A program made the position numbers and the translations under genes. Positions 1,355 through 3,804 of a DNA stretch of 32,000 nucleotides are shown here, piece after piece; within the stretch, counting starts at the first letter, position 1, and every line of letters starts with the position of its first letter. This stretch comes from Acinetobacter wanghuae (GTDB taxonomy: Bacteria > Pseudomonadota > Gammaproteobacteria > Pseudomonadales > Moraxellaceae), in assembly GCF_009557235.1 (NCBI RefSeq), contig NZ_CP045650.1:30001-62000 (forward strand), in the 5' to 3' direction. The notes under the pieces are model-generated. The model saw only the letters and a list, made by a program, of their open reading frames with translations, was not told the origin of the DNA and did not search any database.

Positions 1355-2551
1355 ATGAATCATTTCTATGTAGGTGCAATGTTATGTCTGGGTTTGACTT
1401 CTTATCAACTGACAGGCTGTCAGGCACAGGACAAAACCGCTAAAGAAAAAATTGTGAACCAAGAGCAGGCAAAACCAATCCAGCAATCTAATGCTGCTTC
1501 ATCTGTCACTCAAACACAGCAAACTTATAAAGTCAGTAATATCGCGCAATTTAATGAACCATGGGCAATGGCTGCTTTAAAGGATGGGCGATTACTGATT
1601 ACTGAGCGAAAAGGCACATTACAATTATTTAATCCACAGACGCGTCAAAAAGTCGAAGTAAAAGGTGTGCCTAAAGTTGCTTATGGTGGACAAGGTGGTT
1701 TGGGCGATATTGTATTACATCCTCAATTTGCACAGAATCATCAAGTGTATATCAGCTATGCAGCAGCAGGGCAGGCAGGCTATGGCGCTGTCGTCGCACG
1801 TGGTGAATTAGATTTATCGAATTCCACATCGCCACAACTCAAAAATGTAAAAACCATTTGGGAACAAGTGCCTAAGGTAGATGGTCAGGGACATTATTCG
1901 CATCGAATGTTATTTGGTAAAGATGGCAAACTTTGGATCAGTTCTGGCGAGCGTCAAAAATTTGAGCCTGCACAAGATTTACAATCGAATTTAGGCAAGG
2001 TTTTAAGTTTAAATGATGATGGTACACCTGCAGCGGGCAATCCATTTGTACAGCAAGGTGAGATCGCAAAACAAGTTTGGAGTTTGGGTCATCGTAATCC
2101 TTTAGGGATTGCACTCGATCATAAAGACCAACTTTGGGTGGTTGAAATGGGACCTAAAGGTGGTGATGAGCTAAATGTAATCGTAAAAGGCGAAAATTAT
2201 GGTTATCCGCTGGTTTCTGATGGTGATCATTATGATGGCAAGGGAATCCCAGATCATCATACACAACCGAAGCTGAAAGCGCCTGAAATGACTTGGACCC
2301 CCGTTATCTCACCCTCAAGCCTGATCTTTTATAAAGGCAATCAATTTCCTGCATGGAAAAATAAGGCACTGATTGGCGGTTTGTCTTCGGAAGCCATTAT
2401 TGTTGTGGATACAGAAATGAAGCCCGTACAGGAAGTTCAGCGTTTAAATATGCAACAACGTATTCGTAGTTTGCTTGAAGCAGAAGATGGTTCAATTTGG
2501 GTATTAGAAGATGGTAAAAATGCTCAATTACTTAAAATGACGCCGCAATAA
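1355..2551 (+). CDS. PQQ-dependent sugar (glucose/sorbosone-type, YliI-like) dehydrogenase, lipoprotein
   Basis: Lipobox LTGC after a signal peptide. Beta-propeller family motifs GHRNPLGIA, GPKGGDELN and NYGYP are typical of soluble aldose sugar dehydrogenases. Confidence 0.85.
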   Translation: MNHFYVGAMLCLGLTSYQLTGCQAQDKTAKEKIVNQEQAKPIQQSNAASSVTQTQQTYKVSNIAQFNEPWAMAALKDGRLLITERKGTLQLFNPQTRQKVEVKGVPKVAYGGQGGLGDIVLHPQFAQNHQVYISYAAAGQAGYGAVVARGELDLSNSTSPQLKNVKTIWEQVPKVDGQGHYSHRMLFGKDGKLWISSGERQKFEPAQDLQSNLGKVLSLNDDGTPAAGNPFVQQGEIAKQVWSLGHRNPLGIALDHKDQLWVVEMGPKGGDELNVIVKGENYGYPLVSDGDHYDGKGIPDHHTQPKLKAPEMTWTPVISPSSLIFYKGNQFPAWKNKALIGGLSSEAIIVVDTEMKPVQEVQRLNMQQRIRSLLEAEDGSIWVLEDGKNAQLLKMTPQ

Positions 2552-2572
2552 ATTTTCTAATTTGATTAATCA

Positions 2573-2604
2573 GCCCTTATTTTTATCGAAAAGTGGGGCT
2601 TTTT
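2573..2604 (+). terminator. rho-independent terminator of the dehydrogenase gene
   Basis: Imperfect hairpin gcccttatttt/aaaagtggggc followed by TTTT. Confidence 0.6.
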
Positions 2605-2684
2605 AAATCATTTGTCTTAATGATGCTGCATCACGTGGCATCCTGTTTTGAATATTCAGTTTCTTTAGATAAGAGCTAGATAAG

Positions 2685-2809
2685 AAAAAACCCCGACATC
2701 CTGTCGAGGTTTTTCAGATCTTTTGTTTAGAGATATAACTCCTGTCATATCCATCAGCATCCTGCTGCCTTATTTATTGTTTTTATTTCAAGACATCCTG
2801 TCTTGCTAT
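2685..2809 (-). ncRNA. Csr/Rsm-type (CsrA-sequestering) small RNA, copy A, about 125 nt
   Basis: Minus-strand hairpins at 2789-2805, 2755-2767, 2732-2751 and 2691-2709 display ACAGGAUGU, GCAGGAUGC, ACAGGAGU and ACAGGAUGU at their tips. The last hairpin is followed by U6 and acts as a terminator. A TATATT -10 lies at 2816-2821 and a GacA-like box at 2866-2883. No ORF is present. Confidence 0.75.
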
Positions 2810-2815
2810 GAAACT

Positions 2816-2883
2816 AATATAATATTTTATATGAGATACGTATAGCCTCAAATGTCGGCGTGTGATGTAGGTAAATGCTTACA
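2816..2883 (-). promoter_or_regulatory. promoter of sRNA copy A: -10 TATATT plus upstream GacA/UvrY-type palindrome
   Basis: The minus strand reads TGTAAGcatttaCCTACA (2866-2883), an 11/12 match to TGTAAG-N6-CTTACA. It is followed 44 nt later by TATATT (2816-2821). The predicted TSS is the A at about 2809. Confidence 0.65.
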
Positions 2884-2946
2884 CTATTGTTTGATTACTG
2901 TGCAACATAGCAAAATTTTAAAAAGCTTAGATACTATTCATGATGC

Positions 2947-3085
2947 AAAAGAAAAGCCCCAACATCCTGTTGAGGCTTTTCTGGATTTGCTTTGCAGATT
3001 TGACTCCTGTCGAATCTGTGAACATCCTGTTCAATGACGCTTTTTATTATGATTTGATCGCTTAGCTAACATCCTGTTTGGCTAT
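2947..3085 (-). ncRNA. Csr/Rsm-type (CsrA-sequestering) small RNA, copy B, about 139 nt
   Basis: Minus-strand hairpins at 3064-3083, 3019-3033, 2995-3018 and 2956-2976 display ACAGGAUGU, ACAGGAUGU, ACAGGAGU and ACAGGAUGU at their tips. The last hairpin is followed by UUUUCUUUU. The promoter layout is the same as for copy A. Confidence 0.75.
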
Positions 3086-3091
3086 GAAGCT

Positions 3092-3159
3092 AATATAATC
3101 ATTTAACCCTGTATGCCATAGCCGATATATACGGTAGCCAATGTAGGTTAAAGCGTACG
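3092..3159 (-). promoter_or_regulatory. promoter of sRNA copy B: -10 TATATT plus degenerate GacA/UvrY-type palindrome
   Basis: The minus strand reads CGTACGctttaaCCTACA (3142-3159), a 9/12 match to the consensus. It is followed 44 nt later by TATATT (3092-3097). The predicted TSS is the A at about 3085. Confidence 0.55.
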
Positions 3160-3174
3160 AGAGTGTCAGCTTTT

Positions 3175-3717
3175 TTAGGCACTCACATATTGAATGAGTT
3201 TATCGACCGATAACTTTAAGGCTTTATTATCAAAATCATTAGCTTGGAAAGTCTGATCTTTATTACGTGAGAAAATATCTCGAATCTCAATCACGGCATT
3301 GGTATCTACTAAGCCGAGTTGAGTGCCGACCTGACGAATTTGGTCAATAGAACGCGATCCATTGGTTGCGCCATAACCAACATAAGCCGCGGGTTTACCC
3401 TGCCATTCTTTGCCTAAGTAATCGAGTGCATTTTTAAGCGCAGGGCTATAGCCATGGTTATATTCAGGACTAATGAAAATAAATGCATCTGCTAATGCAA
3501 TTTTGTCCGCCCATGCTTGTTGTTTGGGTTGATCATAAATGCCAGTCAGTGGTGGATTAGCACCGCTAAAAATCGGTAGATCCCACTCTTTTAGATCGAT
3601 TATTTCAGTTTCAATAGTGGCAAAGCCATAACTTTGGATTTGATTGAGTACCCAATCTGCAACTTTAATAGCAGTACGACCCTCACGGATACTGCCGACC
3701 ACAATATAAATTTTCAT
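3175..3717 (-). CDS. NADPH-dependent FMN reductase family protein
   Basis: MKIYIVVGSIREGR flavodoxin-like N-terminus and ISPEYNHGYSPALKNALD motif. Start moved to ATG 3717, preceded by AGGAAAA; the longer ORF (to 3804) lacks an RBS and runs into the upstream terminator. Confidence 0.85.
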   Translation of the reverse strand: MKIYIVVGSIREGRTAIKVADWVLNQIQSYGFATIETEIIDLKEWDLPIFSGANPPLTGIYDQPKQQAWADKIALADAFIFISPEYNHGYSPALKNALDYLGKEWQGKPAAYVGYGATNGSRSIDQIRQVGTQLGLVDTNAVIEIRDIFSRNKDQTFQANDFDNKALKLSVDKLIQYVSA

Positions 3718-3804
3718 GTCTTTTCCTAAAGGTATTATGATGTTTTTACAGTAATTGTTTTTATAAAATGAATGTAGATGCAATTTGTATCGAAAAATCA
3801 GCAC

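Follow-up and report, generated by a model that had tools for sequence, protein, structure and literature searches.

The window, as we call the whole 32-kb stretch of Acinetobacter wanghuae DNA analysed here, contains a 623-bp spacer (2552-3174) that is bordered on one side by a gene for a PQQ-dependent sugar dehydrogenase (1355-2551, plus strand) and on the other by an FMN reductase gene (3804..3175, minus strand). Within it lie two units, A and B, which read as small RNA (sRNA) genes co-oriented with the FMN reductase gene, so that the gene order of the locus is ileS-lspA-fkpB-FMN reductase-RNAs-PQQ dehydrogenase. A preliminary description of this DNA had seen no credible open reading frame in the spacer, and this was borne out: the tblastn matches of the longest one (61 aa, 2852-3037) were all short, fell in several frames of either strand and covered the RNA sequence, and it was rejected as a gene because the protein is not conserved. 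Neither csrA nor gacA lies in the 32-kb window, and we presume from the genus that A. wanghuae has both; tblastn found no csrA in the window plus 17 Acinetobacter loci, which is uninformative since the gene is located elsewhere in the genome.

The 9-mer ACATCCTGT occurs five times in the 32-kb window, always on the plus strand and always in the spacer (at 2696, 2793, 2962, 3022 and 3069), which compares with about 0.15 copies expected and with shuffles none of which (0 of 100) reached five. Read on the minus strand as ACAGGAUGU, the five copies (0.15 expected) are those that the preliminary description had reported, each where it had placed them. The minus strand has seven copies of CAGGAKG from 2639 to 3076, with three other matches in the rest of the window, and GGA itself occurs ten times on the minus-strand RNA of the spacer (2552-3174) versus once on the plus strand, with five copies in the 132 nt of unit A and four in the 142 nt of unit B. 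The motif, earlier given as CAnGGAnG, has to be corrected: CA directly abuts GGA, and what is present is the CsrB-type heptamer CAGGA(U/G)G, which Liu and colleagues reportedly set out in 1997 as the CsrB repeat.

Folding of the minus-strand RNA gave four hairpins for unit A (2680-2812; -38.9 kcal/mol, z -5.6) and four for unit B (2942-3090; -44.7 kcal/mol, z -4.7). Those of unit A, a predicted sRNA of ~125 nt (2684..2809), lie in order at 2789-2805, 2755-2767, 2732-2751 and 2691-2709, and those of unit B, predicted at ~139 nt (2947..3085), at 3064-3083, 3019-3033, 2995-3018 and 2956-2976, each presenting a GGA in its loop. All four motif GGAs per unit are in hairpin loops in the minimum-energy as well as the centroid folds, and with slightly different ends the first GGA of unit B is paired in the minimum-energy fold; across the family introduced below, single-sequence folds put 108 of 153 GGA triplets in hairpin loops. 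Hairpin 4 has a GC-rich stem that runs into UUUUUUCUU in unit A (U tract at 2682-2690) and into UUUUCUUUU in unit B (U tract at 2947-2955), and this terminator helix is 98% paired across the family; a simple terminator scan reported the terminal hairpins on the plus strand only. The folds thus match the hairpin coordinates that had been proposed, place the GGA of every proposed hairpin in a loop and agree with the idea of four hairpins per unit, the last of which doubles as a U-tract terminator.

Each unit is preceded by the hexamer TATATT in the position of a -10 element, at 2816..2821 for unit A and at 3092..3097 for unit B (both minus strand). The latter emerged from a promoter scan (ATGGCA-16-TATATT, 3119..3092) and would set the start of unit B near 3085, while the former shares invariant columns with it and would set that of unit A near 2809-2810. 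Further upstream sits a predicted box of the GacA/UvrY type, UvrY being the GacA orthologue: the palindrome TGTAAGCATTTACCTACA (2866..2883, minus strand), which starts 82 nt before the first ACAGGA of unit A, and the 18-bp palindrome CGTACGCTTTAACCTACA (3142..3159, minus strand), likewise 82 nt upstream of the first ACAGGA of unit B. In the 32 kb the unit A box is the sole match to TGTAAGN6CTTACA with at most one mismatch (0.11 expected by chance; 11 of 100 shuffles gave one match). The unit B box has three mismatches to it and is not significant within the window alone; from the genus consensus, TGTA(A/C)G-N6-C(T/G/C)TACA, it deviates at the first base only. The A-to-C and T-to-G changes in that consensus are symmetric. 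Of the 34 family copies, 32 have a box 80-83 nt ahead of the first ACAGGA, as do 17 of 17 re-checked copies, and most family upstream sequences have, as judged by eye and uncounted, a TATAnT-like hexamer at the -10 place. Units A and B are themselves homologous over the RNA and ~70 nt of promoter, with a mean column identity of 78% in their alignment. With a -10 hexamer and a box for each, the claim of two head-to-tail units with promoters of their own stands, at the level of predicted elements. As a separate observation, many family copies carry a semi-conserved yTGCrG a few bases past the box (2845-2865 and 3120-3141 in the window) and a CTAT near the -35 position, and yTGCrG/CTAT may be a second regulator site.

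Searches with Rfam 15 at the gathering threshold returned no match in the window, nor in nine other Acinetobacter loci. The preliminary description had proposed comparison with the CsrB, CsrC, RsmX, RsmY and PrrB_RsmZ models, and none of these reached its threshold: RsmY (RF00195) aligned with unit A only, over the full model (2687-2809, minus strand) and at a sub-threshold 20.1 bits against 57 (E 0.014), CsrB, CsrC, PrrB_RsmZ and RsmX gave nothing at E up to 10 in 2500-3300, where overlaps within clan CL00106 were reduced to the best match, and within the CsrB/RsmX/RsmY/RsmZ group nothing matched unit B at E up to 10. Hits at E up to 10 such as those by ctRNA_p42d, Thr_leader and MicC simply fall on the terminator hairpin and were dismissed as chance matches. 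Since no Rfam family matches at threshold, the RNAs lie outside the curated RsmX/Y/Z and CsrB/C families.

Relatives were sampled in two ways. A three-motif pattern scan over one genome per species contained, among the matches listed, at least 17 Acinetobacter loci with the same layout; those matches also include many unrelated repeat arrays in other phyla and are not a family census. Seven further loci, from A. lwoffii, A. indicus (two), A. schindleri, A. towneri, A. cumulans and one further species, were fetched via the ileS protein, so that this sample is free of selection for GGA content. A covariance model, R1, was made from 21 aligned copies with units A and B included; a first RNAalifold run had returned hairpins 1 and 4 only, and because MAFFT had misaligned hairpins 2 and 3, the four-hairpin structure was written by hand. 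R1 scores 119.3 bits on unit A (E 7.5e-19, 2682-2813) and 106.4 bits on unit B (E 1e-16, 2948-3089), values that are partly circular as both units are among the 21 training sequences. With it, 34 strong copies were recovered from 18 sources (the window and 17 Acinetobacter loci among the matches listed), of which exactly two are in the window, and both of these give a full-length match with the four CAGGA loops in order and the box at about -82 from the first GGA. Copies beyond the training set, 13 in the pattern-selected loci and 17 in the ileS-anchored ones, score 78-116 bits, and by R1 the four-hairpin RNA is present in every Acinetobacter genome sampled.

Two observations on motifs outside these copies may be added. 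The window holds an extra minus-strand CAGGATG (2639-2645) past the unit A terminator, in a hairpin (2622-2645) that reads as a terminator-like site on the plus strand downstream of the PQQ dehydrogenase gene; a third, decayed sRNA copy near 2639-2645 was considered and rejected, R1 giving none there with its filters off over the whole 32 kb. In loci outside Acinetobacter (Colwellia, Thalassotalea, Psychromonas, Marinobacterium, Motiliproteus, Rheinheimera and others) a unit of ~50 nt that starts with ACAGGATGTACGGTA and has further GGA/GGAG is repeated two to five times directly after a terminator-like hairpin (for example L059 1142-1261, L104 3668-3779 and L106 3506-3807 in our numbering of loci, with many more among L002-L121). 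These repeats have no Rfam match, no obvious promoter was seen with them, and they could be a different GGA-rich RNA or another type of repeat.

All seven ileS-anchored loci carry copies, 17 strong ones in total and one to three per locus, directly after the FMN reductase gene or, in A. towneri, which is without that gene, after fkpB. In the alignment of the 34 copies 93.7% of cells are paired, as against 81.5% in shuffles and 35-48% in slid controls, and 20 of 31 stem pairs show compensatory change; for the 27 copies from the syntenic locus the figures are 91.5% versus 82.2% in shuffles, with 17 of 31 pairs compensatory. As these alignments were fitted to R1, they are biased toward the structure, and the case for a genuine, strand-specific signal is made from the slid controls together with G-U stem pairs that are valid on the GGA strand alone. 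A terminator pair may serve as an example, being UG in 16, CG in 11 and UA in 6 of the 34 copies. It is here that one has to consider DNA repeats that are never transcribed, be they of the REP/MITE kind or places where a DNA-binding protein recognises ACATCCTGT. Copies are indeed multiple, clustered or in tandem and variable in number between species, and the three-motif pattern matches unrelated repeat arrays in other phyla as well. Against this stand compensatory changes that keep RNA-type hairpins with G-U pairs valid on a single strand, an orientation to the -10, the box and the U tract that never changes from copy to copy, positions that are orthologous across species, and terminal inverted repeats and target-site duplications, of which inspection showed none; to our minds, repeats of this sort are hardly credible as an explanation.

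Loss of the GGA loops from the orthologous spacers of relatives, which the preliminary description had named as a threat to its claim, was not seen in 11 Acinetobacter genomes, where the stems compensate. CAGGA is kept in nearly all loops of the ileS-anchored copies and the base following GGA is variable. This pattern bears on whether the units might be base-pairing (Hfq-type) sRNAs, or RNAs whose protein partner is not CsrA, in which the GGA loops have some other purpose. A pairing seed would be expected as a conserved unstructured stretch, whereas here the single-stranded parts that are conserved coincide with the CAGGA loops, and the variation in the stems is compensatory; moreover, the upstream box is of the GacA/UvrY type that defines Csr/Rsm sRNA promoters, and sRNAs acting as CsrA sponges are reported in Acinetobacter. 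Four sites are admittedly few next to the 18 in E. coli CsrB (PMC12247646) and the Rfam Csr/Rsm models all stay below threshold, but such a role seems quite improbable.

At the ileS-lspA-fkpB-FMN reductase locus the number of copies ranges from one to four between species. Unit B clusters with those copies of A. lwoffii (81% identity) and A. schindleri that are nearest the FMN reductase gene, unit A clusters with copies farther away from it, and the two units are 69% identical to each other; from this clustering and the A-B identity we conclude that the pair predates the separation of A. wanghuae, A. lwoffii and A. schindleri and that both members were retained. An opposite-strand gene of the tautomerase family lies between two sRNA copies in A. 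lwoffii (L122 10802-11140) and A. cumulans (L128 10772-11179) and is absent from the spacers of A. wanghuae, A. indicus and A. schindleri. Third copies in A. bouvetii (L024 5971-6100) and A. pragensis (L032 6918-7036) retain the box, hairpins 1 and 2 and the terminator, have lost hairpin 3 and the GGA of the terminator loop, and may be decaying or specialised two-site variants.

The family extends to other surroundings. The A. baylyi copy sits between a rarA-like gene and a GGDEF-EAL gene, and other copies adjoin genes for SLT lipoproteins. At a second locus, beside cysK, a module made up of one family sRNA and one gene for an SLT-domain lipoprotein occurs as a tandem duplication (L045 2991-4674; period ~885 bp); pairs of copies ~880 bp apart are present in L014, L031, L067 and L102, and A. 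pittii, a close relative of A. baumannii, has a single module (L130 1303-2124). The CysK encoded at L045 1923-2924, in a record of A. calcoaceticus strain E0281EDON, is identical to A. courvalinii proteins, and the species label may be wrong. The sRNA at the cysK locus is downstream of, and co-oriented with, a gene of the FMN_red/flavodoxin family (L045 4755-5572; L130 2203-2986), as in the window (3175-3804). This shared neighbour may reflect coincidence or an old segmental duplication.

These contexts bear on the view that there are no separate sRNA genes at all and that A and B form a structured 3' untranslated tail and terminator region of the FMN-reductase mRNA, acting in cis, for instance by binding CsrA or by stabilising the message. 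Both units do lie directly downstream of that gene on the same strand, by eye no terminator hairpin was seen between its stop codon and unit B, relatives have the same gene order, and at the second locus, too, an FMN_red-family gene is upstream of a copy. Yet A. towneri keeps the RNA though it is without the FMN reductase gene, a tautomerase gene has been inserted between the two A. lwoffii copies, and further copies occur in contexts as unrelated as those of A. baylyi (rarA-like/GGDEF-EAL) and of the SLT lipoprotein genes. Nor would a cis-acting tail account for a conserved box and -10 at a fixed distance from each unit, or for a terminator belonging to unit B that precedes unit A. We regard a tail of this kind as very unlikely.

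The reading that we favour instead, at a probability of roughly 85%, is that A and B are two independently transcribed, paralogous Csr/Rsm sRNAs which would be controlled by GacA and would titrate CsrA; it was also that of the preliminary description and is supported here, with transcription, GacA dependence and CsrA binding being what we infer from it. Its support consists of sequence features, conservation, covariation and synteny. The five features by which Kulkarni et al. 2006 recognised the Csr-sRNA class (PMC1488887) are all found in both units: an intergenic position, a high density of GGA, GGAs displayed in hairpin loops, a terminator of a GC-rich stem followed by a U tract, and an upstream 18-bp site of the UvrY/GacA type, here as predicted sites.

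In the mechanism that we envisage, phosphorylated GacA would bind the 18-bp palindrome centred ~65 nt upstream of each start site and would activate a weak sigma-70 promoter (-10 TATATT, poor -35). Each transcript of ~125-140 nt would then fold into four hairpins displaying CAGGA(U/G)G and would end at the fourth, serving as an intrinsic terminator. One CsrA dimer binds two GGA sites, so that a four-loop RNA should have room for about two of them. By far most of the full copies folded have 17-20 nt between the GGAs of hairpins 2 and 3, near the distance that is reported to be best for a single CsrA dimer bridging two sites. Titration would relieve CsrA control of target mRNAs, and the presence of two copies might offer dosage or redundancy, possibly with different inputs.

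As for known systems, the pair invites comparison, above all, with RNAs from its own genus. Kulkarni et al. 2006 predicted rsmX, rsmY and rsmZ in A. baylyi ADP1 (PMC1488887), a gacA/gacS phenotype of A. baylyi depends on csrA (PMC12455638), and the sponge sRNAs CsrB, CsrC and CsrD of A. baumannii (Singh et al. 2025, mBio) are cited in PMC13516227 and PMC13643297, according to which CsrB is enriched in a CsrA pull-down. The RNAs so described share with units A and B the genus, the GGA-rich CsrA-sponge class and an upstream GacA-type site. In addition, R1 finds a 110-bit copy in A. baylyi DSM 14961 that resembles ADP1 rsmX in its rarA-like and GGDEF-EAL neighbours and their orientation (-> <- -> as listed), and a 105-bit copy in A. 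pittii, the close relative of A. baumannii. From these two copies the published RNAs are presumed to belong to one family with units A and B, those of A. baumannii by way of the A. pittii copy. The A. wanghuae pair differs from the ADP1 and A. baumannii RNAs in species, in locus and in having two copies head to tail. The question, posed at the outset, whether the locus has already been named can thus be answered in two parts: the kind of RNA is known in the genus, from the 2006 prediction and the 2025 work on A. baumannii, and the literature searched offered no name for the A. wanghuae genes.

Beyond the genus, Pseudomonas RsmY, RsmX and RsmZ (RF00195, RF02144, RF00166) are likewise ~120-140 nt long; they too form multiple GGA hairpins, with GGA displayed on the terminator as well, follow a TGTAAGN6CTTACA box and occur as several redundant paralogues in one genome. 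The Acinetobacter RNAs differ in having a fixed set of four hairpins and a box consensus shifted to TGTA(A/C)G-N6-C(T/G/C)TACA, and the Pseudomonas models stay below threshold on them (unit A with 20.1 against 57 bits for RsmY, unit B without any match at E up to 10). Enterobacterial CsrB and CsrC (RF00018, RF00084) have in common with the units the loop heptamer CAGGA(U/G)G, and they sequester CsrA and depend on UvrY for transcription; however, they measure ~250-370 nt with 9-18 sites (PMC12247646), as opposed to ~125-140 nt and four sites in the A. wanghuae units, to which their covariance models give no match. The arrangement itself has a counterpart in csrB1/csrB2 of Colwellia psychrerythraea (CPS_3528/CPS_3529), which Kulkarni et al. 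2006 (PMC1488887) predicted as Csr sRNA genes sharing one spacer and one orientation; those were assigned to the csrB class, are unrelated in sequence and were compared by description only. Judged by their sequences, then, the A. wanghuae RNAs would work like Rsm/Csr sponges yet form an Acinetobacter family that is without a model in Rfam 15.

One may go further, if tentatively, and see in them a distinct Csr/Rsm family, uncurated in Rfam, with a fixed design of four hairpins for two dimers that was locally duplicated into a cluster of one to four copies at the ileS-lspA-fkpB-FMN reductase locus. The A. wanghuae pair might then be old, separately retained paralogues whose diverged promoters would feed different signals into CsrA titration; this extended version we hold with rather more doubt than conviction.

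The A. wanghuae pair had been left unannotated and does not represent a new kind of system; it fills an annotation gap without bringing in a new mechanism. Modest novelty lies in a design that always has four hairpins, in the way the copies are kept in tandem or in clusters next to ileS-lspA-fkpB-FMN reductase, and in copy numbers that differ from one species to another. In A. baumannii, growth in rich media requires CsrA, and a virulence switch is under its control (PMC13643297, PMC13516227); the RNA antagonists of CsrA are the output of the GacS/GacA pathway. As the family has no Rfam model, Rfam-based pipelines probably leave its genes blank throughout the genus, and R1 together with the coordinates given here would permit their systematic annotation. 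For a species other than A. baumannii, the pair would also provide defined targets for genetic tests in the form of two genes with their two boxes and a total of eight GGA loops.
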